Assembly: GCA_905178155.1 (NCBI GenBank)
Contig: CAJINV010000006.1
Location: forward strand, 4,341,938-4,405,937
Direction: 5' to 3'
Source of the DNA: Amoebophrya sp. A120
Taxonomy: Eukaryota > Protista > Dinoflagellata
DNA length: 64,000 nucleotides
The notes under the pieces are model-generated. The model searched no databases, was not told where the DNA came from, and saw only the letters and a list, made by a program, of their open reading frames with translations. Positions 1 to 64,000 of this stretch are shown here, in pieces; within the stretch, counting starts at the first letter, position 1; every line of letters starts with the position of its first letter. The position numbers were made by a program, and so were the translations under genes.

Positions 1-181
1 ACTTTTTTGCAGGAACAGCATCACAGATTTGTTTTGCATGACAGAGAAAACCTGCCATGCGTAGCTAGTACGCGAAAACACGTATGAAAATAGCCTGTGA
101 TGCACATCCAGCATGACAAGTGTAGCTGTATTGCAACATCTGCAACACAAAGTTACACTTACACAGTTTTTTTCTTGCATA

Positions 182-3100
182 CACCTGCGGGCGGGTTCAG
201 TGCGGACGGGGGAGCTGAGCAGGATCTAGATCTGTTGAAGCAGTCCTCTTTGTCCACCTCTGCATGGTACGCGTTTTATCGGGATATGGACCGGAATAAC
301 AACAACCTCGTCTCCATGATCGAATTCGAAGCGGTATTGTGAGGAAAAATCTTTCCTCCCCATATTGAAAGCGCATCCATCTTCTGGAAACTTGTGATGC
401 AGATTTGTGAACACAAGTCGCGTCTGTCTTGCAAGAGGGCAAGTGCAGGCTGTCCGGCACGTTATGCAGGCGATTTGTAATGCTGCAAGCCCTACAGGGC
501 AGCCGTCTGCCATGCTAGGCGCCTACACCAAAAGGCCCCGCCCTAGGGTTGCGATCTGACTGCGTGCAGTGCTCTACTGCAACACGGATTTGATTTGTGT
601 ACTCAAATACAGCATCACAAATTTCTTTGTCGATATGGGGAGGGGGGATCTTTCCTTCTGATAAGCGGGGTTGCTTTCTTTAAAATACCCCGACGAATCC
701 ACGGACGCGTCGAGTCGGAAGAATATCCTGTGCAAAAGTACCGTACGCGTAGTAATTGCAAGCATGGATGACAGGGTAAATCCGCGCTACAAATTGTTCC
801 ATGTGTCATGCTGAGCCAAGTTGTATATGCAATTTCTAGTATTATTACCTAGGTAGTGCGATGCTTTTGCAATGCATAAAGAGAAGGAAGAAGCTACTCC
901 AGTTGTTAGATAAGGACGGCTCCGGCGAGCTGACATTTGAGGAATTCGGGCAGGTCCTCGGGTTCAGCGAAAAGGAAATCTACAAGGCAAAGGATGACTA
1001 CCAGAAGAAAAACCTCGGGAAAGACGTATGCAATGTAAAAGCATCGTACTAGTATGAATTGCATTACAAATTAGCCCAGCATTACAAATTGAATTTGTAA
1101 TGCTGATTCACCTTGAGAAAGAAATTTGTAATGCATGCATGCAATTACTACGAATACGATGTTGCTTTTGCTCAGGATAAGACGGGGTGAATCGCAATAT
1201 CCGGTGGAGCGCGACGGAAGAATTTGATTTCCACGCGAGAATCAAAGAGTACGGCAGGAGGTCCCGGAGCACCACGCCGTCGCAGCGGCACTTATCCTGA
1301 GTAAAAGCCCCACACCCCATAGTCAAGTTGGGAAACCTGCAATACAAATCAACAAGCTTTGGCTGTTGCCCATCACAGGTTTTGGCTTGCAATGTGATCG
1401 CGTTTAGCTAGCGCAGCTGCGTCACAAATCTAGCATCTTATGCTGATACGAGCATCACAAATTTCAAAACAGCACTAGAGATGAATGCGTCCTCTCATGG
1501 GGCTCCTCCGCATGAGAAACATTTTAAGCATGCAGATTTGCATGACAAGAACTAAGTAAGTATGGGGTGTGACGTTTTTCCTCAGGATAGCACTCGAAGA
1601 AGATCTACACGGACGAATCCGTGCGGAAAAATATTACAGTGAAAAATGCCCCCACACGTCCGAAAGTTGCAATAATTTGTGATGCGAAGTTTCCAAATGA
1701 AAACTTTTTGTCATGCGTGAAAGAACTATGAGTCTTACCTTTCTGATGCAGAGTCTAGTCGTATACAGCATCGCTTGCACCATCACAAGAGCTGCTCTTG
1801 CTGGGATCTTTTGCAATGCAAATCTTTGCTATTCACGATTGAAGATCTGTGATGCTGATACATGCAAGAGAGCGAGTGTTTCCTTTGGAAAGGTTTGCAA
1901 TACAAATGCTTGAAGTTCATCTGGGGTGGGGGCATCTTTCATTGTCATAAAAAAGCACATGCGCATGATCTCTGCCAGCGACATGTCGCCGGTGCCGCTG
2001 TATTGTGAGGAAAAATCCCCCCTCCCCACAGTGCTCAAAACGGAAATCTGTATTGCTGATTTGTGACCACAGATCGTCTCTCTCTTGCAAGAAGGCAACT
2101 ACGTCAGAGGTGTCCGTCGCACTGCGCGGCGGATTTCTGATGCTGTTGGACCTTCATGGCAGCCGTCTAGCATGCGAAACAGAGACTATACGCAAACAGC
2201 CCCAGCACAACTCAGGCTTGCAACCTGCCTGCGATTCCATCCTGCAAGACAAAGCGAATTCGTGGACACCAATCCAGCAACAGAAATTTCCGTTTCAAGA
2301 TGGGGACGAGGGATTTTTCATTTTCATAGGCTCCTGCCGGGTGGTCGGGTGTCGAAATCAGCTTCTTCAAGTAGGTCGAGAACGAATTTGAGCTCCGCGG
2401 GAACGGGAACAAACAAGTCCATGACGAACCAGTCCTTGACAGACGAATCAACGCAGCAGGGCGGTGGAACGACGTTGCAAGACCACGCTTTTCCCGAAAT
2501 GGAGCAGCAAGACGGGCGGGGAACGAACTATATATGCAATGCAAAAGCATCGTGCTCGTATAAATGCATTACAAATTTCCTCTGCGTGGTGAGAAATAAA
2601 ATCTGTAATGCGGATTTACCTTGCCAAAGAAATTTGTAACGCATGATTGCAATTACTACGACTACGAGTACGAGTACGATAGTTTTGCACAGCATACTAC
2701 AATCGGTTTAGCAACGACAACATGCAACAGGGGCAGCAAAGTGCTGGACAGCATAGTCTATCAAATGTAAAAATGTCTGGGTCTGGAAGAATGCATGTTT
2801 GTCATGCTTGTCTGGCATGACTCTTGAATCTGTCATGCAAGTTACCCAAGAGCCCCATTTTTCTGTGATGCAGAAGCGCACTTTGTCATGCAGAATAGGC
2901 AACACCTGGAAGCTCAGAAACTTGTGATGCTGAGCCAGCATTTCTGGCCTCATCATGAGACGCCACCCAGCATCACAAGTTTCCAGACCCAGACATTTTT
3001 ACATTTGATATAGTCAACATATGAAGAAATCCAGCTCTGCAGGGACCACAAATTCAGCTCCTATCAAACGCAAAAATGTCTGGGTCTGGAAGGATGCGAA

Positions 3101-6100
3101 CTTGTGATGCATACTTGGATCACACAAAAATCTGTCATGCTTAGACAGCAAAGGGAGCTTGCTCCTTTTCCTGTCGCCGAAAGAAGATGCTTGTCATGCG
3201 GATTAAGCATTGCGAAACTGTCTCAAAACCTGCGATGCTAGGCCTTGCATGGCACACCTTCTGTGTCAAGCAGACACAGCATCACAAACCTCAGCAACCT
3301 TCCAGACCCGGATATTTTTGCAATGTATAGCTCCTTCGACGAGACAACAACAGCTGAGTTCCGCTGGCGGCGGAGCGAACAGTGCAACTACCGGGAATAA
3401 TGCGATGGAGCTCATTCCCTTGCAGGAAGACCAGCAGATGACAATGATCTCCGAGACAACGACAATTATCAACCGGTCCGCAACTATGGAACTGTCAGGA
3501 TCGAAATCAACAAAATCGAAATAATTTGTGATGCATAAAATAGATACCAGTTGGAGCCTCAGTTTCCAAGTGGCGCATGACAAATTTCAGGAGCTGCACC
3601 AAAATCCAGTCTGTCATGCTGTTTGGGCAAAGAAGGCTGCTCCTGTCGTGCTACTCTGGCAGCACATCGCCTTCCCCTAAACAGGCTTGCATCGGTCTCA
3701 TTTGCCTGCTCCCCAACACAGGCCTTACTTGCCCAACATTTTATGCATTACAAAACTTTTCGAATTTATCGCTTTCGATCCTGACACATCCATAGCAACC
3801 GCACCGACCAAAACTACTGCCGAAGAGCCGCCAAAGGAATTCGACTACGCCGCTTTTGTATCGCAAGAAAAAACTGTTCCACTGTGAACTTGTGATGCAT
3901 AAAATGGAAGATTGAACTATTTGTCTTGCTACTTCTGCAAGGCATCGGATTTTTAAGCGTGTTTTCCCTATGGGAAATGCGCGCACGGCATGTGTAACAA
4001 ACTTGTGATGCAGATCTTGCAAAATGAAAATTATCACAGTGAAGCAGTTTTTTCGTGGGATAGTTTAAGAAGAAGCAGCAAGCACCAAGCACTGCGCCAA
4101 CAACGCTAACCGACACGAAAAACCAGAACAATCCAGGGTTCAGTCGGAAGTCCCACATTGTTGACCACCCATATCGTACGAAAAAAGTGTTTCACTGAAA
4201 GGATTTTGCAAGTTTTGCATCACAAGTTTGTTCTGCATGACAGAGAAAATTTGCCCTGCGAGATTTCCAAGGGAAAGCACCGCTAAAGATCCATTGTCTT
4301 GCATGTGTGGCAAGACAAACACTTCTGAGATACATTTTCTGCATTACAAGTTCACAGTGAAACAGTTTTTTCTTGCGATAACCCGAAACGGTGGACCAAT
4401 CGGTACGGGCACGTGGATCCGAAAACGCCGAAGCAGTTTCGCGACTCGTTTGACGGATTCGGGTTGTTTTCTACGGAGCATTTGATCATGCAACAGGAGT
4501 GGAAGATCCCGCCCGGTACGGGGGAGGACGACTTTTCCCAATCGAAATGGCGATCGTCCGGTGCACCGCCCAATTGGGTCGACCCGAAGAAGGCGCTGCA
4601 GAAGAAGAAGGACAACATGATCATCGAAATGAAACTGTTCCGGGATTTATCAACTTCAAATATGTCTGGGTCTGGAAACTTGTAATGCTGAGCTGTGAGA
4701 AGCAAGTAGTGAATTCTCTGTAATGCACAGCCAAGCATGAGAAATCTTTGCGCTGCTTAGTGTTACGCTTTCCGCATGACAAAGTGCGTTTTGCATGACA
4801 AGCAAGAAGGTCTCTTCTTGGACACGCATCACAAACTCTTCCGTCATGCCAAGCAAGCATGACAAACCTTGCATCCATCCCGACCCAGACATATTTGCAA
4901 TGCATAGGATTTTCTGGAGTCCAAATACGGGGCGTACGGCTATGAAGGGATGGAGCGGATTATCCTGAGGCAAAACGATCCCACCCCATAGTCAAGATGG
5001 GAAATCTGCTACACAAATCCCTAAGCTTTGGCTGTCGCGCATGACAAATTTGGGCTTGCAATGTACTTTCGTGTTTAGCTTGTGCAGCAGCGTACCAGAT
5101 CCAGTTTGTCATGCTGATTCGAGCATGACAAATCTCACAGCACCACCGGGAAACGCCTCTCATCCTCATGGGTCTCCGCAAGAGAAACACTTCAAGCATG
5201 CAGATTTGCATTACAACTCTGGGGTGGGGACGTTTTCGCACAGGATACGGATCTTCAAAATGATGGACACGAACAGCTCTGTATCAAATGCAAATATGTC
5301 TGGGTCTGGAAGGATGCAACTTGTGATGCTGCCTTTGGACTCTACATAAAATCTGTATTGCGTGAACAGCACAAGAGGTGTAATTTGTGCTACGCGTATG
5401 GCGGACGCAGAAACTTTTCTTCAAGAAACTTTTTTTTTTTACCCATGACCTCGGCCTGTGCATGATAGGCCTTGCAACTTTATATAACGGGTTTACGAAG
5501 GGAGTAGCAAGCCCTGCCACGGCTCATGCCAAGCCAATCGCGTAAGCACTTGCGAAGACGCTTCAGCAGCAACAGGTGCTGCGGGCTTTTGGTGTTCCGC
5601 TAGTCTTGGTCCCGTGTCCCTTTCATTCCCGCACGCCAGCGCCCGTCTTAATCGGGCTTGATGCTACCGGGGCACGCGCCTTCTTGCGCAGCACACGCTG
5701 TGCGGAGGCCACCTTCTGTGTTTCACCGAAGGAGCTGACAAGTGCGCCGCCTGAGGTCGCCATCCCCCTTCGAACGTATTCTGGCGACCCTTAGGGAGGG
5801 TAAAATACGGCCCAAATAGCGTTCTCAAGTGCGGGAAGGCTTCTGCGCCGTTTCCGGAAGCAACGTCGCGGAGAAGGGCGCTGCCGGCCCTTGGCCAATC
5901 TGCCAGAACCCAGCGCGACGCCGGCGACCGTGCGCATAGACAAACCAACCCGCACGAACGGCGCCTCTTGCGCAGAGTTGCCTCGTAGCTCGAAGATGTC
6001 CGACCTCGTCTTGAGGAGACACGCCGAAAACACCAGAGGGGGGCCCCTCGGAGGGGGGTTGGGGGGGTGGGTTGCGCGACCCCCCCTGCGTCCATCATAC

Positions 6101-9100
6101 CATGCGGGCTAGCAAAAAAAGGGGGTCCCGAAGGGGGGGGGGTTTACTCCCCCCCTCCGGGGCCCCTCGAGCCGGCATTTTTGCGCTGCCCAAAAGGATT
6201 TCCCGTTGTCTGCGTTGCCGCCAGGCCGGGCGAAAGACCTGGGGGCTTAGGGCAGTGTGGGGAAGCCCGGCGGAAGAAAGCCCACTGCGCGCGGGGCTCT
6301 GCGAGGTTTTTCTCGTTCTAAGCTAGAGCGCCTCCACGCCGCTAAACCTCGGCGGGGCCCCGCAGAACAGCAGCAGAGAAGATTCAAAGCAACGCCCGTC
6401 CTTTCCTCTGTTTCGGGGGTAGTGAGGTGATGCGCCCAAGCCATGACAGCCCGTCGGCACCTCTCACACTGCTAACGCGTAGCTTTGGTGGCACGAGGAG
6501 CCGGCGATAGTGCCTGCTCTCACAGTAGCCATCACCCCCTGCGGCAGGACCCTCGCCGCACGCACAGACCCTGAGAGGCCGCTTTCCAATTGGTCGCCGA
6601 ATGCCTGAGCGGCTCAGACTGTTCGTCCTGGGTTCTCTTTCTAAGCCGGAGTCAAGGAATGGCTGCGCTAGCGGTTAAGCCGTCCTATCAAGAGGGGGCC
6701 GGCGGCAGGCGAGCAAAAATCGACGGTAGGGCCCGCGCTTGGTATTAGGATGCACAGCTATGGGCAAAAAAAAAAGTTTTTTGAAAAAAAGTTTCTGCGT
6801 CCGCCATAACGTGGAGAGGAGATTTCTCAAGCGTTATGAGCATCAGAAAGCCCTCGCAAAATCTCTGATGCTGGGGCATGCATCACAGACCTCATGGGTC
6901 ATGCAAAATCTGCATGACAAACAACTGCACTCGCCCAGACCCAGACATTTTTGCAATCCATAGTCCGACCGGTTGGGCGTTTCCGCGTTTACCGCGGCCT
7001 TGCAATCGACTCTGAAGTACCCCGACGATGGCTCGATTTCCTTCAACGCACAGAGAAGACGGGTGAATCTGTTTCTCATCATGGATTTGGACGGAATGGG
7101 GAGCTTGGATCGGTACAGAGTTGTACTACAGTTTTGTTTCAGTATCTTGTTGTGATCATGTAGTTGTCATTCTGCAACGCAAATCGCTTTTCGTTTGCGT
7201 TTCCCGCATGACAAATTCATCTAGCCTCGATGATTAAAAAAAAGGTACGAATTCTGCCGTGGTTTGACCCAGCAGCTGGACGCCGGAGTGAATCTGGACG
7301 AGAAATTATTGCAATGAAAAATGCCCCCACCCCGGAACTTGGGAGCATTTGTATTGCAAACCTTTCCAAAGGAAACACTCGCCCTCTTGCATGTATCAGC
7401 GTCGCAGATTTTCAATCGTGAATAGCAAAAATTTGTATTGCAAAAGATCCCAGCAAGAGCGGCGCTTGTCATGCAAGCGGCGCTTTATACGACAAGACTC
7501 TGCATCATGAGAAAGATTCATAGTGCTTTCATGCATGGCAAAAAGTTTTCATTTGGAAACTTCGCGTCACAAACTACTGCAAAATTCGGGGTGGGGGCAT
7601 TTTTCACTGTGATAGAAATTCACCCGCCGCCTCCAGCGGTGGGGTAACGAGAAATCGAAGTGGGTTTTGCTGGCGAAGGGGGCGAAAAATTTGAAAAAAC
7701 CACCGCGGAAAACGTGGCACGATTCTTTGTCCATCGTGAAGCCCGAGAACCTATTGAGAGGAAAAATCCCCCTTCCCCATATTGAAGAGGCATCTTTTCG
7801 AAAATTGATGTTGCTGATTTGAGGTCACAAATCACATTTGTTTTGCAAGAAGACCAGGGCAGAAGCTTCCGCCCCATTACGGAAGCGATTTGTCATGCTG
7901 TTGGGCCTAAAGGGGAGCCGTTTGCCATGCTGAGCAACTAGACGCATACGCCCCTACCTAGCCTGGCGATCTGGCCGCAGTGCTTCCCTGCAATACAAAT
8001 CTGATTTGTGTACGCAAATCCAGCATCACAGATCTCTTTTTCGATATGGGGAGGGGGGATTTTTCCTTTTGATAGAACCCGGTGTCCTATCTAGCAAACG
8101 TCGGACTGTCCGGGGGAAACTCCACGTCGGTGCAGGCGAACAGCGAGGAATTAGCCCGGGCGCAACGGTATCAAATGCAAATATGTCTTGGTCTGGAACA
8201 AACTTGTGATGCAAGGACGGGAATAGTGAGCACACTGTAATACGCTACACAGCATGACAAGTTTTTCCGTGGTTCAGAGTTGCGCACCGCGCATGAGAAA
8301 CTGCGTTTTTGCATGACAGACGCGAGGACCTCCTCGCGGGCACGCAATACAGAGTTCAGAGTCATGCCAGACTAACATGACAAATCTCGCAATCTCCCAG
8401 ACCCAGACATATTTGCAGTTCATAAAAGGGCGAACGCGTTTATCAACGTGAGGAAGAAGCTAGAGCCGATCTATTCCCGGCCGGGCACGATGGGAAACAG
8501 CTATGCATTGCAAATATGTCTGGGTCTGGATGGTTGCAACTTGTGATGCTGCCTTTGGATTCTACACAGAATCTGTCTTGCATGATCAGCAAAAGAGGCC
8601 CATTTTTTGCTACCCGGAGAGGGCTCTCATGCAGTATAGGCATCAGAAAGCCCTCAAAAAATTTGTGATGTTAGGGCATGCATCACAGACACCATGGGGC
8701 ACGCAAAATGTGCATGACAAGCGCTGCACTCTTCCAGACCCAGACACATTTGCATTTGATAACAGCGGGTGCGCGACCAGTTTCGGGCCCCCAAGACCGA
8801 CTACCAGTCCGGATCTGTCGCAGCTGTTTAACATCCTATATCAAAAGGAAAAATCCCCCCTCCCCATATCGAAAAGGCATCCGTTCGAAAATCTGTGATG
8901 CTGATTTGTGGCCACAAATCAGGTCTGTCTTGCACGAGAGCAACGCCAGAGCTTTCGCCGCTTTACGCAGGCGATTTGTAATGCTGCTGCACCAACAGGG
9001 CAGACGTCTGCCATGCTGAGCGCCCACCTCTAGCCAGCCCCTTCCAGGCTTTTTATCTGCCTGCACTCCTATACTGCAAGACAAAGCTGAAGCTGATTTG

Positions 9101-10209
9101 TGTACACAAATCCCGCAACACAGATTGCCACTTTGATATGGGGAGGGGGGTTTTTTTCTTTCGATATCCTGCCCAAATCGAGCAAGGATTCCTCCGGGGA
9201 CAGTAACCGCGGCGTTTTGTCCGCACTAATGAACGCTTCGAAACCAAAAATGAGTGAGAAATCTTTCCTAGCGGATGAGCACAGCCTCTATGCATTGCAA
9301 ATATACCTGGGAGGTCGGGAGGAATGCAAGTTTGTCATGCTCGGCTGGTATGACTCTTAACTCTGTGATGCATGAGCAGGAAAAAAGCCTGCCCCTCGCC
9401 TGTCAACATGCAAAAACGCAGTTCTTTGTCATGCGCAAAGCGAAACACATAGCAGCTCGACAACTTGTCATGCTTGGCCGCGTATTGCAGTGCTTACCCA
9501 TCAATCACAACTTTGCATCACAACTTTCCAGACATCCTGGGCTATTTGCAGTGCATAGCCTCATGCCGGCAACTACGGGGGATGCGGAGGATGATGATGA
9601 AGTGTCGGACATGCTTATCAAATGCAAAAATGTCTGGGTCTGGAAGATTTGTAGACTTGTCATGCATATTTTCCAGAAGCCACGATGTCTGTGATGCATG
9701 CCGTAGCATCACAGATGTGTATCGGGCTTTGTGATACCTCTACCGCATGAGAAATACCCTCTCCACGTAGGACAAACCCGACCCCTCTTGCTGGTCATGC
9801 AATACAATTTTTTTTAGAATCCACAGACAGCATCACAAGTTGTGAGCTTCCAGACCCAGACATTTTTGCATTTGATAATGCTGAAAAACCTGCAAAAGCG
9901 GTTTTTGCAACAGGAGCACGTGCGGGAAGAGCGGAAATCACGGGCCTTGTCCGAAACGGTTGACTTTGCGGAAATGATGTGCAGGATATGCAATGCAAAA
10001 GCATCGTACTAGTATAAATTGCATTACAAATTAGCCAGCATTACAAATTGAATTTGTAATGCTGATTTGCCTTGAGAAAGAGATTAGTAAATGCATGGCT
10101 GCGATTACTACGAGTGCGATACTTTTGCAGTGCATACAGGAGTGCGAACAGCAACGCGATCGCGCAGATGAGCAGCGTCGCGAACTTTGGAGTACAGATT
10201 TCGTCGTGA
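182..10209 (+). CDS. Multi-EF-hand calcium-binding protein, 5'-partial, split by 23 complete introners and one GT-AG intron (802 aa visible)
   Basis: Removing each TA..TA element plus one 5-bp DR gives a continuous ORF (184-10209 minus 7617 nt = 2409 nt) ending at TGA 10207-10209. EF-hand-like loops: DRNNNNLVSMIE, DKDGSGELTFEE, DTNSSDRLGVSA, DLDGMGSLDRYE. The two EF-hand pairs share an LKYPD linker. Confidence 0.85.
335..663. mobile_element. Introner family B (representative; ~315-330 bp; TIR TAT.....GGAAAAATCCCCCCTCCCCATA)
   Basis: DR AGCGG/AGCGG; removal joins MIEFEA to GLLSLKYPDE. Other copies: 2001-2328, 7752-8074, 8839-9166, 35664-35978, 50413-50733, 57193-57513, 61718-62039. Confidence 0.92.
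1027..1179. mobile_element. Introner family C (representative; ~145-165 bp; TIR TAT....TGCAAAAG(T/C)ATCGTACT)
   Basis: DR AGACG/AGACG. Other copies: 724-878 (opposite orientation), 2533-2696, 9987-10136, 16794-16938, 17998-18148, 18188-18346, 20857-21019, 22160-22308, 25931-26078, 46819-46968, 53599-53748. Confidence 0.92.
1293..1589. mobile_element. Introner family D (representative; ~275-300 bp; TIR TATCCTGAGTAAAAACGTCCCCACCCCA)
   Basis: DR GCACT/GCACT. Other copies: 4961-5247, 19600-19878, 21212-21493, 25601-25874, 26131-26420, 31704-31985, 39228-39506, 43663-43942, 50785-51063, 57565-57843, 63867->64000. Confidence 0.92.
1632..1949. mobile_element. Introner family E (representative; ~305-320 bp; TIR TATTACAGTGAAAAATGCCCCCACCCC)
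   Basis: DR AAAAA/AAAAA. Other copies: 7307-7614 (opposite orientation), 17664-17976, 31357-31662, 47541-47858, 54321-54638. Confidence 0.92.
2759..3010. mobile_element. Introner family A (representative copy; ~245-295 bp; TIR TATCAAATGCAAA(A/T)ATGTCTGGGTCTGGAA); most abundant family, with several internal subtypes
   Basis: DR TAGTC/TAGTC. Other copies: 3062-3329, 4648-4906, 5282-6962 (hosts the nested element), 8169-8424, 8502-8761, 9289-9557, 9616-9877, 13421-13682, 15991-16251, 16309-16582, 18871-19132, 19951-20214, 22359-22642, 23317-23574, 23747-24008, 24394-24660, 24901-25154, 25265-25533, 27171-27456, 27770-28014, 28514-28790, 29432-29687, 29799-30067, 30397-30674, 41815-42078, 42133-42394, 42642-42888, 45230-45481, 46491-46746, 47040-47333, 48029-48292, 48394-48655, 51159-51432, 51708-51969, 52482-52740, 52856-53110, 53272-53526, 60052-60306, 60390-60651, 60919-61196, 61398-61659, 62615-62883, plus copies at +6780 in the duplication. 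Confidence 0.93.
3485..3794. mobile_element. Introner family F (representative; ~305-316 bp; TIR TATGG..(G)TGTCAGGATCGAAATC)
   Basis: DR GCAAC/GCAAC. Other copies: 15303-15618, 26761-27074, 48985-49292, 52083-52389, 55765-56072, 58863-59169, 62265-62576. Confidence 0.92.
3859..4062. mobile_element. Introner family G (representative; ~200-220 bp; TIR TATCGCAAGAAAAAA(C/G)TG; several subtypes)
   Basis: DR TTTTG/GTTTA. Other copies: <1-181, 4172-4380, 16989-17199, 31029-31243, 36732-36941, 43040-43258, 43328-43532, 44963-45175, 48745-48947, 55525-55727. Confidence 0.9.
5397..6808. mobile_element. 1412-bp non-autonomous TIR element nested inside a family A introner
   Basis: ~50-bp TIR TATGGCGGACGCAGAAACTTTT...CCCAT / ATGGGC...AAAAGTTTCTGCGTCCGCCATA; DR ACGCG/ACGTG. 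The host introner sequence resumes exactly after it. GC-rich interior with no credible ORF. Confidence 0.9.
7113..7244 (+). other. Canonical GT-AG intron (132 nt) flanked by a GGTAC direct repeat
   Basis: CG|GTACAG...AAAAG|GTACGAA; removal completes the EF-hand loop DLDGMGSLDRYEF. Confidence 0.85.
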
Positions 10210-13200: not shown

Positions 13201-13392
13201 GTGGAGCTGGAGATTACTTCAATATAGCAGGAGAGCGGAGTAGAGGACATCGTCGATCAAGAAGAACCCTTGGCGCTAATAGTCGTCTGTTTTTAGCCGG
13301 AAGACGCGCTGACGGGGGCAGAAGCGACAGCGGCAAAATATTAAATCTCGGGGAAAAAAGATTGTTCCCGAAGAAGACGACCAACTCCGAAG

Positions 13393-34025: not shown

Positions 34026-34106
34026 CGAGTTGTTTAAAAACGGCAGAGGAGAAGGATCGCACTTACGAGTTGTTTCAAAGAAACGGTAGAGGAGAAGGAC
34101 CGCACT
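34026..34106. repeat. ~40-bp intergenic tandem repeat
   Basis: CGAGTTGTTT..AAAACGG(C/T)AGAGGAGAAGGA(T/C)CGCACT occurs twice. Confidence 0.8.
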
Positions 34107-35663: not shown

Positions 35664-35978
35664 TATCAAAAGGAAAAATCCCCCCTCCCCATATCGAAAC
35701 CGAAACTTGTGATGCTGTATTTGAGTACACAAATCGACTTGGATTGCTAGAAGGCCAAGAGACGCAGCTGTGGCCTCGGTTGCAGGCAATTTGTCATGCT
35801 GTTTCCCACTTTTAGTTGTTTTTTGTTATGTTGAAGACGCAAAGGTTTATTCCCACGCCAACCAGCACTACAGTCCGCATCTTTTCCCTTCTAGCATGAC
35901 AAAGCTGATTTGTGGCCACAAATCTGCATCACAAATTTCTAGTGTGAGTATGGGGTGGGGGGATCTTTCATTTTGATA
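35664..35978. mobile_element. Family B element outside any recognised CDS
   Basis: Family B TIRs; left flank AATGA, right flank A+AATGA. Confidence 0.85.
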
Positions 35979-36731: not shown

Positions 36732-36941
36732 TATCGCAAGAAAAAAGTGTTACAGTTACACATTGTGTTGCAAAACACGCATGGCAGACAGCCTCTGTCA
36801 TGCACGAAATGCTTTCAAACCTTGTTTCATACGTGTTTTCCCGTAGGATTTCAGCAATGCAAGTTTTCTCTCTCATGCAGAGAAATTTGTGTTGCTGAAT
36901 TGACAACAAATGTGTAACTGTAACACTTTTTTCTTGGGATA
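36732..36941. mobile_element. Family G element outside any recognised CDS
   Basis: TATCGCAAGAAAAAAGTGTTACAGTTACAC...TGTAACTGTAACACTTTTTTCTTGGGATA; DR CCCAC/CCCAC. Confidence 0.9.
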
Positions 36942-45609: not shown

Positions 45610-46154
45610 GTTATACTTTCGATTCGTCTACTCTACAGTTCTCTTTTCAATATCGTTCTCATCTAGGATCAGTCCCTGGTAGTTGCTTGTTCTGGTGTGC
45701 TTTCTATATTCATCAATGGATTGTGCGCCGGCTAGAGCTGCTAGTTCTTCGTCTCTAATGAATAACGGGCAAGTAGTTGTACTAGGCCGAGGGTAGTACT
45801 ATGTATACTATAAAAATGTGCAGGCACTAAAAATAAACTTGCGGGAAGGTATAAAAATTGCAAAACAGCATTTACTTTTATCGGCATCATCGGCAAAACA
45901 GGTTACGGCGCATCTTCCGCGACCGGCGCGGGGGCCAATTCTAGCACGGGGGCTACACTCACGTCTGTTATCCACTATAGATCGAGGAAGTTTCTTGATG
46001 ATTGTACCGTCATACACGACAACGTGCGTTAAGTTGTGTACGTAGTAATGACAAACCTGCATGTTGAAATGGGTGTATGATTTGTTTTCGTAGCCTGTAC
46101 TAGCCAGGAGATTAAGCCCCCACCGAGGATCTTCATTCTGATTGAAATTTCCAT

Positions 46155-52100: not shown

Positions 52101-55100
52101 GAAATCGACAAAGTTGAAATGATTTGTAATGCATAAAAACCATGACCCGAGGCACGTGTGTTGCAGAGCAGGCAAGTGAGGCCGATTGTAATCCTGTTTG
52201 GGGTTACAGCTCGAGCTGCTAAAGTAGCATGAGAAAATCGCTCTTCTTTGCCTAAACAGCATGACAAACTGGATTTAGGGACCGCCGAAATTTGTCATGC
52301 GCCACTTAGAAACTGGGTTCCAACTGGCATCCATTTTATGCATGACAAATTATTTCAACTTTGTCGATTTCAACTCTGACACATCCATACTGGATGACGG
52401 CGAGAGTCGGGCCGCGGGGACCACGACGCGGGGCATCCTGGCCCGCTTGGCCGGGTCCGCGATCGGCTTGATTCCGGGTGTTATCAAATGCAAAAATGTC
52501 TGGGTCTGGAAGATTCTGAGACTTGTCATGCACGGTTTGCATGACCCACGATGTCTGTGATGCATGCCCTAGCATCACAATTTTTTAAAGGGATTCTTGA
52601 TGCCTAGTCCGCATGACAAATGCCCTCTCTGCGTAGCAAAAATTAGACTCCTTTTGCTGCTCATGCAACACAAATCTTTTAGACATCCAAATGCAGCTTC
52701 AGTTGCATTCTTCCAGACCCAGACATATTTGCAGTTGATAGGTGTAGGTTTCGCGGCCAGCACCCTGGGTCTCTCGACGATCAAGGAGGCGCAGAGCAAA
52801 AAGACAAGCCCGAAGCTGACAGCGGTGGAGGATCAATTTGCCCAGCCAGAAGACCTATCAAATGCAAAATTGTCTGGGTCTGGAGGTCTGGAAGATTTGC
52901 GATGCTTGTCTGGCATGACCAAAAGGTTTGCGATGCGTGTCCAAGAAGAGACCCTTTTGCCTGTCAAGCAAAAACGCAGTTTGTCATGCGAAAAACGCAA
53001 CACAAAGAAGCGCAGATATTTCTCATGCTTGGATGTGCATTACAGAGCATTCACAACTCCCAACGCAGCATGACAAGTTTCCAGACCCAGATCGATATTT
53101 GCACTGGATAAGATCACAGCCAGTTGGCACAGATTGCTGCGCACACTGCGACGCACATGCGGCAACAGCGAGAGAAGCGAGAGTTGCAGGAGCAGAAGTT
53201 GCTGCTTGCACGATCATCTTCCGAAAGCGTTCAGACTCCTGGTGGAGGTGCAGCGGCGGCGAGTACTTCTATATGGATTGCAAATACGTCTGGGTCTGGA
53301 AGAATGCAAGTTTATCATGCTTGTCTCACATGACTCTTGAATTTGTCATGCACATTACCCAAGAGCCCCATTTTTCTGTGATGCAGAAACGCAGTTTGTC
53401 ATGCAGAATAGGCAACACCTAGTAGAAGCTCAGAAAATTGTCATGCTGAGCGAGCACTTGTGGCCTCCTCATGATACGCCACCCAGCATCACAAGTTTCC
53501 AGACCCAGACATATTTGCAATGCATAGCACCAGCGGCCACGCGAGCCAAATGTCTACCGATGGCATGAGCAATGTGGCGGTCGGGTGTCGCTCGAGCATA
53601 TCCTGTGCAAAAGTATCGTACTCGTAGTAATGGCAGTCATGCATTACAAATCTCCATCCCAAGGCAAAACAGCATGACAAATTGCATTTGTCATGCTGAC
53701 CGAATTTGTAATGCGATTTGTACTAGTACGATGCTGTTGCAATGCATAGAGCATAGCGGGTGACGATTTAGATGACCAGTTTGAAATCGCTTCGCAGCAA
53801 ATTGACGCACAGCTTGCTGTATGCATTGCAAATACGCCTGGGTCTGGTTCTGGAAGGTTGCAACTTGTGATGCTGGCTTTGGATTCAGAAAAAATCTGTA
53901 TTGCGTGACCAGCCAAAGCGGTCCAGTTTGTGCTACGTGGAGAGCTACCGTTTCTCATGCGGAATAGGCATTACCATTATCAGGAAGCCATCTAATAGTG
54001 GTCTGTGATGCTAGGTGATGCATTGTAGGCGTCGCGGGTCATGCAAAAGGTGCATGACATACAAACGCTGCACCCTTCGTCCAGACCCAGATCGATATTT
54101 GCAGTTGATGATATGCAGCGGGAGGTGACCTGGATCATCCTGTCGCCGGTAGTTCGCGTAGTGGAGGTGGTGACCTGGAGAAACTGCACCAGGGACAAAT
54201 GCAGGCACCTGGTGCACCTGGAGCTACCGCAGCTGGTTGTTTTGCTTTTGCCGGTGGAGTTCCGCAACAACAGCTTCTCCCTAGCATCTGCGAAACTTTG
54301 AACGAAGATATGGCCTCGGATATTACAGTGAAAAAAGCCCCCACGCCCAAAATTGCAATAGTTTGTGATGCGAAGTTTCCAAGTGAAAGCTTTTTGTTAT
54401 GCATGAAAGGAGTACGAATCTTTCTGATCCTGATGCAGAGTCTAGGCGTATATCGCAGCGCCTGCATGACAAGCGCCGCTCTTGCTGGGATCTTTTGCAA
54501 TTACAAATTTTTATTTTTGCTATTCACGACTGGGAATCTGTAATGCTGATAGATGCAAGAGGGCGAGTGTTTCCTTTGGAAAGGTTTGCAATACAAATGC
54601 TCCCAAGTTCGGGGGTGGGGGCGTTTTTCATTGTAATATCGGAGCTGGGAGCGAAGACGGCATCTTCCCGGGGAAAGATGAGAAATAATGACCGCAGCTC
54701 TTCAAGCAAGGAAAGTTGCACGGCCGGCGACCGAGTTGTAGCTGGTGGAACCGCGGCAGCCGCTTCTTCTATGGAGGACCTGCCCCGCGTGCCCAGTAAC
54801 AATACCATTATCAAATGCAAAGATGTCTGGGTCTCGAAGAGTACAAGACTTCTCATGCGGGTTCAACATGACGCATGAGGTCTGCAATGCAGGAGCTAGC
54901 ATGACAGATTCTGTGAGATCTCTACCATGCCTATCCTGCATGAGAAACTCACTCCCAACTTGGTCAAAAGTGGTCAGCTTTTGGTAGTCATGCAACACAA
55001 ATTTTTGCATGATCCAGATTTAGCATGTCAAGCTGCATCCTTCCAGACATCCAGGGATACTTGCAGTGCATAACCATGACGGACGAACAGTTTTCCGAAC

Positions 55101-58100
55101 TGGGCGGCGCGTTCAGCCGGGCGAGTAGCGGAATTATTCGGCAATCCACGAAGGATAGTACCATTACCAGGGCTATCAACTGCAAAAATGTCTGGGTCTG
55201 GAAGAATGCAACTTGTGATGCTGCATTTGGATTCCAAAAAGATCTGTATTGCATGAGTACCAAAGGGAATGCAATTTTTGCCACGCTGAGAAGGCATTTT
55301 CCATGCGGAATAGGCATCAAGAAGCCCTCAAAAAGTCTGTTATGCTAGGGCATGCATCACAGACATCGTGGCTCATGCAAAACGTGCATGACAAGTCTCA
55401 GAGTCTTCCAGACCCAGACATATTTGCAATTCATAAGGGCCGCGGCGTTGAGTAGCGCAGGTTCCTCGCCAATGCAGGGGCCTGTATCAACTACCGCAAC
55501 AAGCGCGGGAAGATGTGGGCGATCTATCGCGAGAAAAAAGTGTTTACAGTTACACATTTGTTCGAATTTCAGCATCACAAAGAAGACTTGTAATGCGCAG
55601 ACCACAACATCTTCAAGGGAAAACCCGCACGAAATGAGGCTGGCAAGCATTTTCTGCATGACAGAGGTTGTCTGTCTTGCTGGTCTTGCGTCAGAGTGTG
55701 TAACTGTAACACTTTTTCCTTGTGATACGATCCTCTGCTGCTCTACTACAACATGCGGGAGGAGTATGGAAGCGTCAAGTTTGAAATCGACAAAGTTGAA
55801 ATGATTTGTCATGCATAAATTGCAAGGCATGAAGTGCCTATCTTGCCGGGATGGCAAGCGAGGCCGATTGTGAGCCTGTTTAGGGTTTGAAATAGAGCTA
55901 CTAAACTAGCATGACAAAAGCAGTCTTCTGTGCCCAAACAGCACGGCAAATTGGATTCCGGTGCTCGGAAGATTTGTCATGCGCCGCTTGATAAGTGGGC
56001 TTCCGACTGGTATCGGTTTTATGCGTGACAAACTATTTCAACTTTGACGATTTCGATCCTGACACATCCATAACGATGTGGGAATAGTCATAGCCTTTCT
56101 CCGCAACTTCGCGCCGCAGTTCAGGCCCACGGTTGTACTAGTTCGCTCCAGCAGCAGGTCGTACTGGGACAACATGATGATTTCACTGGAGCAGGAGCTC
56201 ACGTAGGGCACCACCAGCGTCCTGGTGCTTGTAGTACCGCTGGTCGTCTGGAGGAACAACTTGCGGCGAGCAGGCCATCTTGCTCGCACACAACAACCAC
56301 ATATGAGAGTGCACAACTCCCCCTCCCCCTCATTTGTGTTGCATGAACAGCAACACAAGCGCGGGCAAAGATGCAGCTTTTGCATGACAAATTCCTAGGG
56401 GACTGTAGTGCTGTTTTGGATTCCGGAATTTGTCATGCAAACAGTGCCACAAGGCAGCGACTGGATTTGGGATTTTGCATGACAAAGGAGGGGGAGGGGG
56501 AGTTGTGCACCGTGATACCACACCGGCACAGCACCGGGAAGACGAAGAGCAACTCCAGCTTCACTGCCGTGCTTGGGAGTGGGCGCGCAGCAATAGTGGC
56601 GGATCTACTGCTTCCCAAGTGGTGCAACAACGAGTTGCACTATCGGGTGGAAGAGAACAACCGGGTGGGGCGGGTGGGGCAGCCCAGAGCAGTGCTGCAC
56701 CTAGAGAAGTCGTAGTACCTGCTGCTCAAGTAGGTGAACAAGAGCGAAATGGAGTAGACGAGGAGGTTGTGGTCCCGGAGGGGACGGTTCTGAATCTCCA
56801 AAATCTTCTATGACAGTGCACAACTCCCCCTCCCCCTCATTTGTCATGCAAAACCCCAAATCCAAGGGCTTTCCTGTGGCACTGTTGGCATCACAGATTC
56901 CGGAAGCCCAAACAGTACTACACTAAGCGCATGAACTTGTCATGCACATGCACCAGGTGTGGCTGTGTTTGTATTGCTGTTCATGCAATACAAATGAGGG
57001 GGAGGGGGAGTTGTGCACTCTGATATCTTCAACCACGTGGCCCTAATCATGAAGCGGACGACAATGACGACGCTGCCTCTTCGGGAACGGCCTCGACCAA
57101 TCTGGACGCGATTGAGGATGGGCAGCAGGACAGATTGAGCGACGCCATGACCAGGCTGAGCTTGTCAAAACGGGGAAGCACTTTCGACTCCTTATCGAAA
57201 GGAAAAATCCCCCCTCCCCAAATCAAAATGAAATTTCTGATGCTGGATTTGTGTACACAAATCCGCGCTGTCTTGCTGGAGAGCACTGCAGGCCCATACT
57301 AAGTGTGAGTAGAGAGGTTTTGGCCTGGGCACTTAGCATGAAAAACATCCGCGCTGTAGGCCCAACAGCATGACAAACCGCCTGCACAGTGCGGCGGTTG
57401 TCTGTGGAGTTGCCTTCTTGCAAGACAGACACGATTTGCGACCACAAATCAGCATCACAAATTTGCAAAAGTTTTCTTTTCAGTATGGGGAGGGGGGATT
57501 TTTCCTATTGATACTCCTACGGCAGCAACATGTCGGGTTTGATGAGTGATGATGGGAACAGCCCTATCCTATGTAAAAACATCCCCACCCCAGAGTTGTC
57601 ATGCAGATTTGCAATGACAAGAACATTTGTGATGCGCATCCCTATGATGGGCCTTTCCAGTCGTGTTTTGGAATTTGTAATGCTGTAAACAGGATACGTA
57701 TCTCGATTTGTAATGCGGCTGTCCTTGCTAACCTGCACTACACTACGGGCTGCAACTTGTCATGCGTGGCGTCCAAAACTCCTGGATCTGTGTTGCAGAG
57801 ATCCCAACTTAACTATGGCGTGGGGACGTTTTTACTCAGGATAAACCCCGGTGGTTATCTCGGCAGGAACAAGAAGAGGAGCGAGAAACTGGCCGCCAGG
57901 AGAGGTGGCACCACGGGACATGGCGAAGGAGGAGCTGCTATCACCTGCAAAAGTGTCTGGGTCTGGAAAGAATGGGATTTGTGATGCTACCTGTCGACCA
58001 CACAAAAATCTGTATTGCAAGAGAGGCAAAGAAAAAACACTCAGATGGTTGCCACCAGGAGAGGGCATTTCTCATGCAGTTTAGGCATGAGCAAATCTTT

Positions 58101-61100
58101 GCGAAAGCTGTGATGCTAGAGAGTGCATCAGAGGCATCGGTGGAAGCCATGTACAATTTGCATGACAAACTCCCAATAAATCTTCCAGACCCAGACATAT
58201 TTGCATTTGATAGCTGCGTCGTCGTCCATGGACCAGCGGCAAGAAATTACGGTGGTCACCATGAGTGACGATCAGCTCGCCGCCGCCGGCAGGGCCGGGC
58301 TTCTGGGCAACTTAGAAGGCATCGACCAAGATCGGCCACCGTCTAAGAGCAGCAGCGGTAAAAAGCCGCTTTCCGGTGCAGGCGGGGGCGCTCGCACCAT
58401 TACGGATGATACGCTGATGGACACGTATGTGCTGGGCCACGCGAGCAGCCTCGATGGGGGGTCGCAAGACCGAGCGCATGGTGGGTATATCAAATGCAAA
58501 AATGTCTGGGTCTGGAATGTTGCCGGGTTTGTCATGCATACTTTGTATGACCCAGGATGTCTGTAATGCACGACCTACCATCACAGACTTTTAGAACCCT
58601 TCCTGATGCCTACCCCGCATGACAAATGCCCTCCCCGCGTAGCATAAACTAGACTCCTCTTGCTGGTCATGCAATACAGATTTTTTTAGAGTCCAAAGCC
58701 AGCATCACAGGCTCCAACCTTCCAGACCCAGACACTTTTGCATTTGATAGGGTCCTCGCAAGACCGGGCGGGTGCTGGGGCTAACTGTCCGCCCGATCAT
58801 CGCACCTGCTCCGAGGGAACCCGTTCGGCGCTCGGGGAAGAGGATATGCGGGCGATGCTGGATATGGATGTGTCAGAGTTGAAATCGACAAAGTTGAAAT
58901 GATTTGTAATGCATAAAAACCATGACCCGAGGCACGTGTGTTGCAGAGCAGGCAAGTGAGGCCGATTGTAATCCTGTTTGGGGTTACAGCTCGAGCTGCT
59001 AAAGTAGCATGAGAAAATCGCTCTTCTTTGCCTAAACAGCATGACAAACTGGATTTAGGGACCGCCGAAATTTGTCATGCGCCACTTAGAAACTGGGTTC
59101 CAACTGGCATCCATTTTATGCATGACAAATTATTTCAACTTTGTCGATTTCAACTCTGACACATCCATACTGGATGACGGCGAGAGTCGGGCCGCGGGGA
59201 CCACGACGCGGGGCATCCTGGCCCGCTTGGCCGGGTCCGCGATCGGCTTGATTCCGGGTGTTATCAAATGCAAAAATGTCTGGGTCTGGAAGATTCTGAG
59301 ACTTGTCATGCACGGTTTGCATGACCCACGATGTCTGTGATGCATGCCCTAGCATCACAATTTTTTAAAGGGATTCTTGATGCCTAGTCCGCATGACAAA
59401 TGCCCTCTCTGCGTAGCAAAAATTAGACTCCTTTTGCTGCTCATGCAACACAAATCTTTTAGACATCCAAATGCAGCTTCAGTTGCATTCTTCCAGACCC
59501 AGACATATTTGCAGTTGATAGGTGTAGGTTTCGCGGCCAGCACCCTGGGTCTCTCGACGATCAAGGAGGCGCAGAGCAAAAAGACAAGCCCGAAGCTGAC
59601 AGCGGTGGAGGATCAATTTGCCCAGCCAGAAGACCTATCAAATGCAAAATTGTCTGGGTCTGGAGGTCTGGAAGATTTGCGATGCTTGTCTGGCATGACC
59701 AAAAGGTTTGCGATGCGTGTCCAAGAAGAGACCCTTTTGCCTGTCAAGCAAAAACGCAGTTTGTCATGCGAAAAACGCAACACAAAGAAGCGCAGATATT
59801 TCTCATGCTTGGATGTGCATTACAGAGCATTCACAACTCCCAACGCAGCATGACAAGTTTCCAGACCCAGATCGATATTTGCACTGGATAAGATCACAGC
59901 CAGTTGGCACAGATTGCTGCGCACACTGCGACGCACATGCGGCAACAGCGAGAGAAGCGAGAGTTGCAGGAGCAGAAGTTGCTGCTTGCACGATCATCTT
60001 CCGAAAGCGTTCAGACTCCTGGTGGAGGTGCAGCGGCGGCGAGTACTTCTATATGGATTGCAAATACGTCTGGGTCTGGAAGAATGCAAGTTTATCATGC
60101 TTGTCTCACATGACTCTTGAATTTGTCATGCACATTACCCAAGAGCCCCATTTTTCTGTGATGCAGAAACGCAGTTTGTCATGCAGAATAGGCAACACCT
60201 AGTAGAAGCTCAGAAAATTGTCATGCTGAGCGAGCACTTGTGGCCTCCTCATGATACGCCACCCAGCATCACAAGTTTCCAGACCCAGACATTTTTGCAG
60301 TGCATATTCTAGCGGTGCTTCTCATTATTTCCTAGGAACGTCGCCTATTCGTCCCGAGCCCCAGCCCCTCCGGGAAGATCTTACGAGGGTACCAAATGCA
60401 AAAATGTCTGGGTCTGGAAGATTCTGAGACTTGTCATGCACGGTTTGCATGAGCCATGATGTCTGTGATGCATGCCCTAGCATCACAGGTTTTTTGAGGG
60501 ATTCTTGATGCCTATTCCGCATGACAAATGCCCTCTCCGCGTAGCAGATATTAGATTCCTTTTGCTGCTCATGCAACACAAATTTTTTAGACATCCAAAT
60601 GCAGCATCACAAGTTGCATTCTTCCAGACCGAGACATTTTTGCATTTGATAGAGGGCTCCTTCCTACCACGACCAAGATCTTCTGCTCCCGGCCAATGGT
60701 GCACCAGCCCGGACGCTCTCGGAAGCTGCTTTCCCGCGGCCTGACGATGCTGCTCTGATGAGTATGAGAGGGGACCACGTGATGGATGCTGATTCCTCAA
60801 ACGCCTTGTTAAATAACGTTAATGCGGCGGGAGGACGAGGACAAGCTCAAGGTGATACTACGTCGGGATTCTCGCAGGGGCAGGTCGAAGCCATGATGTA
60901 CCTCCACCAGGAACTCCATATGCATTGCAAATACCGATCTGGGTCTGGAAGGATGTTGCGAGGTTAGTCATGCTTGCATGGCATGACTGAAGAGTTTGTG
61001 AGGTCGTGAGTCCAAGAAGAGACCCCTTTGCTTGTCATGCAAAAAGAACGCAGGCTGTCAGGCGGAAAGAACCGCAACACTTAAGCGCGCAAATGTTTCT

Positions 61101-64000
61101 CATGCTTGGCTGTGCAACATTTTTACAGAGCATTCACTATTCCCAACTCAGCATAATTCCAAGTTTTCAGACCCAGATCGATATTTGCATTTGATACTGC
61201 AGCAGCAGCCGCGACAACATTCTCAGGGCCACGATAATATGCCGACGGGTTGCAGTACAACTTCTAGAGCTGCTGGGCCGGAGGTTCTTGTGCGGCACGA
61301 AGGTCGTTTTGAACATGATCCGAGCATGTTACAAGAATTATCTGGGGCAGCTGCAGCGTCTCGCGTTCTGCGCGATCAGCATGATTTTCGTTCATCATAT
61401 CAACTGTAAAAATGTCTGGGTCTGGAGGGTTGGAACTTGTGATGCTAACTTTACACTCTAAAAAAATCTGTATTGCATGACCAGCAAGAGAGGTCTCGTT
61501 TCTGCTAGGCGGGAAGGGCATTTGTCATGCGGAGTAGGCATCAGGAAGCCCTCCAAAAATCTGTGATGCTAGGTCGTGCATTACAGACATCCTGGGTCGA
61601 GCAAAATATGCATGACAAGTCTCAGAATCTTCCAGACCCAGACATTTTTGCATTTGATACATCAGGTGACGACGCAACAAGCCGCGCCGACGTTGGTGAG
61701 GAAGAACGCCGTCTGCTTATCAAAATGAAAAATCCCCCCTCCCCATATCAAAACGGAAATTTGTGATGCTGATTTGTGGCCACAAATCAGCTTTGTATTG
61801 CACAGAGGCACTGCGGCCAGATCCCCAGGCTAGGTAGGGGCGTATGGGTCTAGTAGTTCAGCATGGCAAACGGCCCCCATTTAGCCCCAACAGCATGGAA
61901 AATCGCTTCCATAATGGGGCGGAAGCTTCTGCCCTTGTCTTCTTGCAAGACAGATGTGATTTGTGGCCTCAAATCCGCAACGCAAATTTTTGGAAACATA
62001 CCTTTTCAATATGGGGAGGGGGGATTTTTCCTCTCAATACTGCTGGCTGCCCAACTACGCATACGCCACGTGTATGAGCTGAAGCGGTTGCCCGGACGAG
62101 GTCGGCCCATTGAGTTGCGTAATATCAGTACACGTGCAGAAGGAGGAGGACCTAGCACAGCAGCAGTTGGCCAAGAAGTTGTAGAACAAGGCGAGGGGCA
62201 GCAGCAGCAGACGACCACGCAGCCTCCGACGGACAAGCTCAGCTTATACCATGCGACGAGCGGATATGGGAGTGTCAGGACCGAAATCGACAAAATCGAA
62301 AAATTTGTAATGCGTAAAATTATGTAGGGCCCAAAAAAAGGCCTGTGTTGGAGAGGAGGCAAATGAGACCGATTGCAAGCCTGTTTAGCCCTAAACATGT
62401 ACTGCCAGAGTAGCATGAGAGGCGCAGTCTTCTTTGCCCAAACAGCATGACAGACTGGATTTTGGTGCTCCCAAAATTTGTCATGCGCCACCTAGAAACT
62501 GAGGCTCCAAGTGGTATCGATTTTATGCATCACAGATTTTTTCGATTTTGTTGATTTCGATCCTGACACCCCCATAGCGGACAAGTAGAACAGGATCTAC
62601 GACTTCAAGGGATGTTATGGATTGTAAAAATGTCTGGGTCTCCTGGAAGATTCTAAACTTGTAGTGCTGTCTCTGGATTCTAAAAAAATTTGTATTGCAT
62701 GACCAGCAAAAGGACTCCAGTTTGTGCTACGTGGAGAGGGCATTTCTCATGCGGTAGAGGCATCACAAAGTACTCTAAAAATCTGTGATGCTAGGGCATG
62801 CATCACAGATCGATCCTGGATCATTCAAAATATGCATGACAAACCCGGCAATCTTCCAGACCCAGACATTTTTCCATTTGACAGATGTTGAAGAGTGACG
62901 ATAGCAGAGGTAGTACTTCTTCTGCCCACAACGCGTCGGCAGCTAACCTTTTGAAGATGCGGAGGACTTCTAGTACTGCGTCAGCTGCTGAACAAGACCG
63001 GGAACAACTACAGCATCCTCCTTTGGAGCAGGAACAACGACACGTTCATCCTCTTCACTTTGACCCAGAAAATCGTAAAACTTTGCGACAAAAAAGTGGA
63101 GACCACACTATGGACGACGAGGACAATAAATTCGTTCCCTGGCAAACCGAATTTCTGGAGCGCATGAGAAACCAAGTTCTACTTTCCGGTGGTTCACCTC
63201 GCTCGATGCACACCGCCGCGGACATTCTTCAGCAAAGACTGCAACTGCAGCAAGCCGATGACCTGCAAGCCGATCTAGATCTTTCGCAGTTGAGCAATTT
63301 ACACCTTTCGTCCCCTCCTGCTCCTGCGGGGACGTCGAGCAGGGCTGTTGCATCTTCTCCTGCTCCTGCGGGGACCACGAGCAGGGCTGTTGCCCCGGTG
63401 GAGCAGGAGGAAGATGAAGATCCTCCTGCAGGTGTTCCTGATAGTCCCATGATCAGGCAGGAACACAAGATGCGTCGGCGACAAAGCGGTAACCTTGGAG
63501 AGATATTGCGAGGTCAGGCTGTTGCTGAGAAGACAGCAAGGGAAATAAAACACGTGCTGCAACGATCGTCGTCGTCCAGCAGGTTGGAAGCAGTTGGAGA
63601 AAATGGAACAGAAAGAATGGACGTTTTTCGAGATACCGCTGCTTTACCAGACGAGTTCGCGCTAGAGCAACATCCTAGAAGTTGTACAACAGCGGAGAGG
63701 ATGAAAATGGACGATATGATCAGCGGCGCACCAGGAGACTTGAGCGGTCTGATTATACCAGGGGGTCATCGTGGTACAACTGGGCGCGCAGCAGCCTGGA
63801 TACAACAACCAGTTCTTCCACCCGACGAATTGCAAAAAGAACTACAGGAGGGACAACAAACTCAGATATGCTGTGTAAAAACGACGTCCCCATCACCATC
63901 TTTCCAGAGTTGTCATGCAAATCTGCAAGTGCTTGAAATGTTTCTCATGCGAGCTGCCCCATGAGACGAGTTTTCTATATTGTATTTTGGAATTCGAATT
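46155..64000 (+). CDS. Hypothetical low-complexity protein, 3'-partial, split by introners and containing a 6780-bp tandem duplication
   Basis: The spliced ORF is open from ATG 46155 to 53271, and the same frame continues at 60307 to 63866 if one duplicate unit is ignored. The start is uncertain and the gene could be a continuation of the previous one. Confidence 0.65.
46706..60292 (+). repeat. Tandem duplication with a 6780-bp period (46706-53512 and 53486-60292)
   Basis: The sequence and the ORF track repeat at offset +6780. I saw no differences by eye. The copies overlap by 27 bp at the junction. Confidence 0.95.
63315..63393 (+). repeat. 42-bp in-frame exonic tandem repeat (PAPAGT(S/T)SRAVA x2)
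   Basis: CTCCTGCTCCTGCGGGGAC..CGAGCAGGGCTGTTGC occurs twice. Confidence 0.85.

Follow-up and report, generated by a model that had tools for sequence, protein, structure and literature searches.

Transposon-derived introns in a 64-kb stretch of Amoebophrya sp. A120: a likely fixed cut register and three invariant terminal bases

The DNA analysed here (the window) is a stretch of 64,000 nucleotides from contig CAJINV010000006.1 of Amoebophrya sp. A120. It is eukaryotic DNA with a GC content of about 48%, and its genes are interrupted by short elements that begin with TAT, end with ATA, and lie between 5-bp direct repeats (DR). These elements are most likely the introners already published for A120 (Farhat 2021; PMC7789003), which makes the phenomenon a rediscovery, most likely for this very lineage. 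The further result is that the elements are likely to be removed at a single fixed register, with cuts 1 nt ahead of TAT and 4 nt past ATA, and that three of their terminal bases are invariant on the gene strand. With slightly better than even confidence, we take them to be introners of the A120 type: TAT..ATA transposons that are non-autonomous, duplicate 5 bp of their target, and would be removed at this one register by a relaxed U2-type spliceosome.

The exons of the window match proteins labelled Amoebophrya sp. A120 at 99–100%. Farhat 2021 (this and the other papers cited are quoted from the parts of them that were available to us) describes about 30,000 repeated non-canonical introns in A120, with inverted repeats starting TAT and direct repeats of 3–5 nt. 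They are about 240–260 nt long and are mixed with GT-AG introns within one gene, and no transposase was found for them (PMC7789003). Taken together, the exon matches and this description indicate that the phenomenon is already published. The window elements resemble the published ones in the TAT start, the seven variable bases, the A run, the 5-bp repeats and the division into families, with no difference in kind. This agrees with a preliminary description made from the sequence alone, which had proposed introners of the Amoebophrya kind, resembling MITEs (transposable elements of miniature size with inverted repeats) and removed together with one DR. The published gene models were built from BLAT-aligned transcripts, with no splice model. 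The splice position was called variable, 1–5 nt from the inverted repeat, and the mechanism was left open; most spliceosomal proteins were detected in A120, together with U2, U4, U5 and U6, whereas U1 was not (PMC7789003). Beyond that description go the fixed register, the strand-asymmetric invariant bases, the presence of both orientations in each family, and a shared subterminal motif. No published A120 splice code, fixed register or three-base asymmetry was found in the literature available to us, and Amoebophrya is not mentioned in the accessible part of the preprint of Roy et al. 2023; the figures of Farhat 2021, subscription papers and theses may bear on novelty.

The first scan for elements used inverted repeats alone and ignored the flanks. 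It found 96 elements. A perfect repeat of 5 bp flanks 65 of them, a repeat of 6–10 bp none, and the same scan of three Markov shuffles of the window gave 1, 0 and 0 elements. Degenerate copies were later added by homology. The final catalogue contains 115 complete TAT..ATA elements, which occupy 30,843 bases of the window, and in addition two elements cut by the window ends and one nested element of 1,412 bp, in line with the approximately 118 elements of one DR5-TAT..ATA-DR5 architecture counted previously. The two repeats agree at all five positions in 82 of the 115, at four in 21, at three in eight, at two in three and at none in one. Sixteen of the 115 are copies within an exact 6.8-kb tandem duplication; setting these aside, together with one chimeric element and two intergenic copies, leaves 96 genic non-duplicate elements, which form eight multi-copy families and three singletons (a looser clustering gave 14). 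The inverted repeats start with TAT, followed by seven variable nucleotides and then a run of A. The elements are short, non-coding and multi-copy, have terminal inverted repeats (TIR) and target-site duplications (TSD), and occur in either orientation, as is typical of MITEs. Scans of the window against Rfam, for tRNA and for viral contigs gave no matches. Typical, intergenic and truncated elements are as follows (in this and later lists, strand is given for genes and for the canonical intron).

9616..9877: example of the largest family (about 262 bp; 41 of the 96 genic non-duplicate elements), with a perfect 25-bp TIR, DR ATGCT and RNA fold z −9.75
35664..35978: intergenic element copy, found by the inverted-repeat scan and by homology
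36732..36941: intergenic element copy with a perfect DR, found by the inverted-repeat scan
1..181: element cut by the window start, found by homology
63867..64000: element cut by the window end, found by homology

The same eight families are also present in metagenome loci (JACKZZ01 contigs, L001–L128). These were found with a 30-nt end motif, which gave at least 128 loci; the 128 listed contain 346 elements, 251 of them with perfect repeats, and full flanks are available in only 80. Every family has copies along the gene strand and against it, and for the largest family the count over window and metagenome copies is 70 against 64, with 13 unclear. Genes that host element families in the metagenome loci include ETF-beta (L067), an SNF2 helicase (L004), a kinase and an EF-hand protein (L070), and further families, absent from the window, are visible there. 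The window exons have no homologue in the metagenome loci listed, which therefore supply no empty-site allele.

Splicing was carried out in silico by removing each element together with 5 nt. This yields four long frames on the plus strand.

184..10209, plus strand: gene 1, 3' portion, coding for an EF-hand protein; interrupted by 23 elements and one GT-AG intron; once spliced, its product matches the final 802 aa of the A120-labelled protein P0001 exactly
7113..7244, plus strand: canonical GT-AG intron of gene 1, starting GTAC; its junction peptide is found in P0001
13393..32295, plus strand: gene 2, 3079 aa with a hydrophobic N-terminus; 38 elements; stop-free once spliced; last 1696 aa identical to the A120-labelled protein P0002
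38764..45609, plus strand: gene 3, 1387 aa; 11 elements; stop-free once spliced
46200..64000, plus strand: gene 4, start approximate, extending past the window end; part of it is duplicated; 41 complete elements, counting the copies in the duplicate; spliced frames of 870 and 1456 codons, both free of stops

The stop-free spliced frames of genes 1–3 are 2409, 9240 and 4164 nt long, and none of the 72 elements in these genes could be read through. Frame arithmetic sets the removed length only modulo 3; removal of each element plus 2 or plus 8 nt left 0–1 stops per gene. The preliminary description had stated that deletion of an element plus one DR restores the frame at all the junctions it checked except at the chimeric element at 53272, and the stop-free frames and the chimera confirm this. 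Two of the three lengths that it gave, 2409 and 4164 nt, also stand; the third, 9234 nt for gene 2, is corrected to 9240, with the element in question starting at 28520, and the 2409 nt of gene 1 are reached only if the normal GT-AG intron at 7113–7244 is removed as well. Removal of this intron completes an EF-hand, and a Pfam EF-hand match lies on the exon at 882–1022. The boundaries were said to be generally not GT-AG. This proves correct, in that the GT/GC...AG ends of U2-type introns would be possible in just 10 of 96 elements, at any placement inside the repeat. The comparison with Amoebophrya proteins that had been suggested gave the two identities listed above. The P0002 model begins at an inner methionine and lacks about 1,380 residues at the N-terminus, the hydrophobic leader among them (window 13393–21640), though the open frame supports them. 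A distant paralogue of the C-terminal 900 residues of gene 2 is found in P0003, an A120-labelled protein of another contig, which has no Pfam domain. For gene 3 no model was found among database proteins of 348–2000 aa, which is weak evidence.

P0001 and P0002 are transcript-based models, and they lack all of the elements that they span, 23 and 21 respectively (44 in total). They were used to locate the cut. The register k is the number of repeat bases taken as intron before TAT, the remaining 5−k being taken after ATA; imperfect repeats are informative, since the mRNA keeps the base of one copy. For k = 0 to 5, the mismatches to the two models number 4, 0, 2, 2, 4 and 6. At k = 1 there is thus no mismatch over 44 junctions, about nine of which are informative. 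The following two elements constrain the register most directly.

31029..31243: element with a 2/5 DR; P0002 fits only k = 1, and cutting at TAT gives a stop
28520..28790: element with a 3/5 DR; excludes cuts 2 nt or more before TAT

The metagenome loci give the same picture. In L067, an ETF-beta gene is split by seven elements in the part examined, and after their removal 340 of 366 junction crossings are gap-free against ETF-beta homologues. One column at a junction (Val in 20, Ile in 2 and Gly in 1 of 23 homologues) fits k 0–1; Ala or Thr would stand there from k = 2 upwards. Another (Pro in 150 of 150, a column that was part of the query) fits k 0–2; from k = 3 upwards it would read Leu. 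Stop tests rule out k = 0 (L057) and k = 5 (L061), and an internal repeat in L045 favours k 0–1 at two sites. In Table S4 of Farhat 2021 (PMC7789003), all nine predominant non-canonical end pairs of A120 start N-T and all nine of A25 start TT. Only k = 1 makes all introns start N-T, so the A120 pairs are as this register predicts. The repeats of A25 start TTA, which would give T+2 and A+3 as inferred for A120. A mutation-polarity test on mismatched repeats gave no signal. Informative sites are few, and none disagrees with k = 1. A single cut register, fixed at this value, is therefore considered likely.

The terminal bases were compared in 304 elements read on the gene strand, 96 from the window and 208 stranded ones from the metagenome. 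Metagenome elements with a DR match below 3/5 were left out (26 of the 346 in a first count; 321 rows were kept on a re-run), as were 113 without a strand call. No variant was seen at 5' T1, at 5' A2 or at the first A of the 3' ATA. All 24 variants fall elsewhere, ten on 5' T3 and 14 on the last two 3' bases, and this holds for 11 of 11 in the window and 13 of 13 in the metagenome (p = 1e-4). Outside the three terminal positions no convincing asymmetry was seen (position 10, p 0.04 uncorrected). The two ends would be alike to a transposase, and both T and A occur among the fixed and among the free positions, so that no single strand-biased base change is expected to explain the pattern. With k = 1, the invariant bases become U+2, A+3 and A−7, and we infer that these would be required for removal. 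U+2 and A+3 coincide with the canonical 5' sites of the lineage. The GT-AG introns called de novo in the metagenome loci form a noisy set of 162, of which 97 have coding flanks and many are mis-called elements; 23 were kept after filtering, and 16 of these start GTA.

It had been suggested earlier that the removal machinery recognises the paired ends rather than splice-site bases. This idea is weakened. The fixed bases have pairing partners that vary, which argues that the ends are read as bases and not only as a paired stem. The arms average 3–6 mismatches in 22 nt, and in six of eight families the two arms of an element resemble each other no more closely than do arms taken from different copies. 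The terminal stems nonetheless fold strongly as RNA (z −7.0 and −9.75).

A relaxed U2-type spliceosome would read U+2, A+3 and the A at −7. The sequence N-U-A might be a GU-A 5' splice site with its first base freed, and A−7 might be a branch adenosine at a fixed distance from a 3' site that has no AG; the TIR stem would perhaps only bring the ends together. Because TAT..ATA reads alike on both strands, either orientation would supply the signals and any target sequence would be tolerated. A fixed distance between branch point and 3' site has a precedent in Giardia and Spironucleus, in the Giardia-type fusion of the two sites. A bolder claim, to which we give a little less than even confidence, is that this amounts to a three-base code (U+2, A+3 and a fixed A−7, with no GU or AG), which palindromic ends would provide in either orientation and at any target, so that about half of the genic DNA could be invaded harmlessly; the TTA elements of A25 would follow the same 5' rule, and this would be the most relaxed spliceosome known.

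Several points weigh against this reading. To give up G+1 and the 3' AG together would be an extreme step for a spliceosome, and the stable stem would need to be opened. A at −7 is not enriched in the noisy set of canonical introns (9 of 23, background 0.31, p 0.27), and the bases preceding A−7 differ among families, with no single motif that could pair with U2. The asymmetry rule was first seen in the window, which leaves only the 13 metagenome variants as an independent test. The register is bounded from above by two model junctions, one strong homologue column and two weak repeat columns, and Table S4 is possibly biased by a preference of the aligner for GT, CT or AT starts. The one joint found, in a contig of run X3 (below), is unable to place the cut. 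Raw RNA runs X9–X11, which carry the same species label, do not cover the exons; they gave 3, 2 and 12 reads, only of element ends with foreign flanks, and no junction reads. Finally, no transposase was found in the window, and Farhat 2021 reports none in A120 (PMC7789003).

An alternative that we consider rather unlikely, though the strongest of those weighed here, is a non-spliceosomal endonuclease and ligase like that proposed for Euglena, which would bind the TIR stem, read a few terminal bases, and cut with a 1-nt 5' and a 4-nt 3' overhang, giving the same register. Strong terminal stems would suit such an enzyme, as would repeats with no AG or G+1 bias, the lack of A−7 enrichment in canonical introns, and the failure to find U1 in A120 (PMC7789003). 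The nonconventional introns of Euglena share with the window elements a TIR stem, TSD-like repeats, ends other than GT-AG, and fixed unequal spacers between stem and cut, as in the Euglena code N3CDG/CHGN5-6 (PMC12501133), and they leave as circles (PMC11282704). Euglena introns have a CAG/CTG pair, a purine at the start of the next exon, and spacers of 3 and 5–6 nt, whereas the window elements have ends N-TAT and ATA-N4, spacers of 1 and 4 nt, invariant bases that are unpaired, and no purine or other exon base bias. The invariant bases are not pairing partners, breaking of the last three pairs is tolerated, and the arms, with their mismatches, are no better matched than shuffled ones in six of eight families. 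The coincidence of U+2 and A+3 with the canonical 5' sites of the lineage also points away from a separate enzyme. That a spliceosome can adapt to non-canonical introns of transposon origin is indicated by Fritillaria borealis, whose introns of MITE origin likewise carry TIR and TSD and are processed by a modified U2 spliceosome (PMC11282704, PMC13326754). The preferred ends there are AG-AC and AG-AT and U1 is kept, in contrast to the free first and last bases of the window elements and the U1 not found in A120. The introners of Micromonas and Aureococcus are again non-autonomous TIR transposons turned into introns that leave the mRNA unchanged; unlike the window elements, they use canonical splice sites, one carried by the element and one taken from the TSD, so that the choice of target is restricted (PMC9860276, PMC11282704).

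A cut that floats anywhere within the 5-bp repeat, in an otherwise precise removal, is improbable; the legend of the published figure implies such a cut, and the fixed register would then be an effect of small samples or of annotation. The 82 perfect repeats among 115 are uninformative and would permit it, and Farhat 2021 does call the sites variable, 1–5 nt from the inverted repeat (PMC7789003). No informative site contradicts one register, neither in the two models nor in the homologues or the stop tests.

Excision at the DNA level, in a somatic or transcribed copy as with the internal eliminated sequences of ciliates, is very improbable, in spite of the parallel of TA-bounded ends in an alveolate host. 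The raw RNA of a related strain contains element ends with their flanks, and in run X3, which is only guessed to be RNA, depth is up to 85 in element-bearing bins against about 2 over long exons, so the templates carry elements. An RNA step is also suggested by the strand-asymmetric conservation. In favour of the main reading, a single X3 contig shows a joint that skips the following element.

16794..16938: element of 145 bp (family of about 150 bp), skipped together with 5 nt in the X3 contig; joint 16788 to 16939, skip 150; fold z −7.0

Element ends with foreign flanks in the raw RNA of the related strain indicate that the families are shared with that strain and transcribed there. The reads concerned, from run X11, lie at window positions 10115–10138, 13457–13474 and 19608–19640. 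Least probable of all, and largely refuted, is the explanation that the genes are dead or use nearby GT-AG sites: three of the four genes have no Pfam domain and expression is seen only at low depth, but the identity with transcript-based models is exact over 44 junctions, few elements could be GT/GC-AG introns (10 of 96), and ETF-beta is intact across seven elements.

The elements are already published, and the question they raise is how tens of thousands of introns without standard ends are removed. A fixed register with three strand-specific invariant bases predicts one branch point per intron and three lethal point changes, and provides a rule for annotation. If it is true that a spliceosome can drop G+1 and the 3' AG, this is relevant to how little the chemistry of splicing requires and to the bulk conversion of transposons into harmless introns.

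The elements also share an internal signal. A 9-bp motif, YTGTVWTGC, is present in 95 of the 96 elements; its density is 18 per kb within elements and 0.12 per kb elsewhere. It lies 30–50 nt from each end, on both strands and pointing inward, and is common to otherwise unrelated families, which makes it a candidate transposase binding site and suggests one mobilising protein. The elements may thus have been spread by a putative DDE transposase that would bind this motif. Integrase-type DDE enzymes are a candidate for the mobiliser: IS3EU/GingerRoot DNA transposons have similar TA..TA termini, although their TSD is usually 6 bp (PMC10045372), a length seen in 0 of 96 elements here, where it is 5 bp, and an integrase-like TIR family 38 has been reported in A120 (PMC12130899).

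Gene 4 contains an exact tandem duplication, and gene 1 contains an element within an element.

46706..60292: exact tandem duplication with a period of 6,780 bp; 46706–53512 and 53486–60292 are 100% identical
53272..53526: chimeric element at the duplication joint, DR absent; first 241 nt as in the copy at 60052, last 41 nt as in the copy at 46491
5282..6962: element of the largest family carrying a nested insertion; the whole unit is missing from P0001
5397..6808: nested GC-rich TAT..ATA element of 1,412 bp, with a 43-bp TIR of different sequence and a 4/5 DR

Both breakpoints of the duplication lie inside elements of one family, with a shared stretch of 27 nt. At the chimeric element the frame is shifted and is not restored on removal. 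The duplication is either a recent unequal crossover mediated by the elements or a misassembly. The nested element gave no Pfam match in 11 frames, no transposase, and no match in the 128 metagenome loci listed. It does not carry the shared subterminal motif, and is marked by runs of G and C and by an inner palindrome at about 6122–6166.

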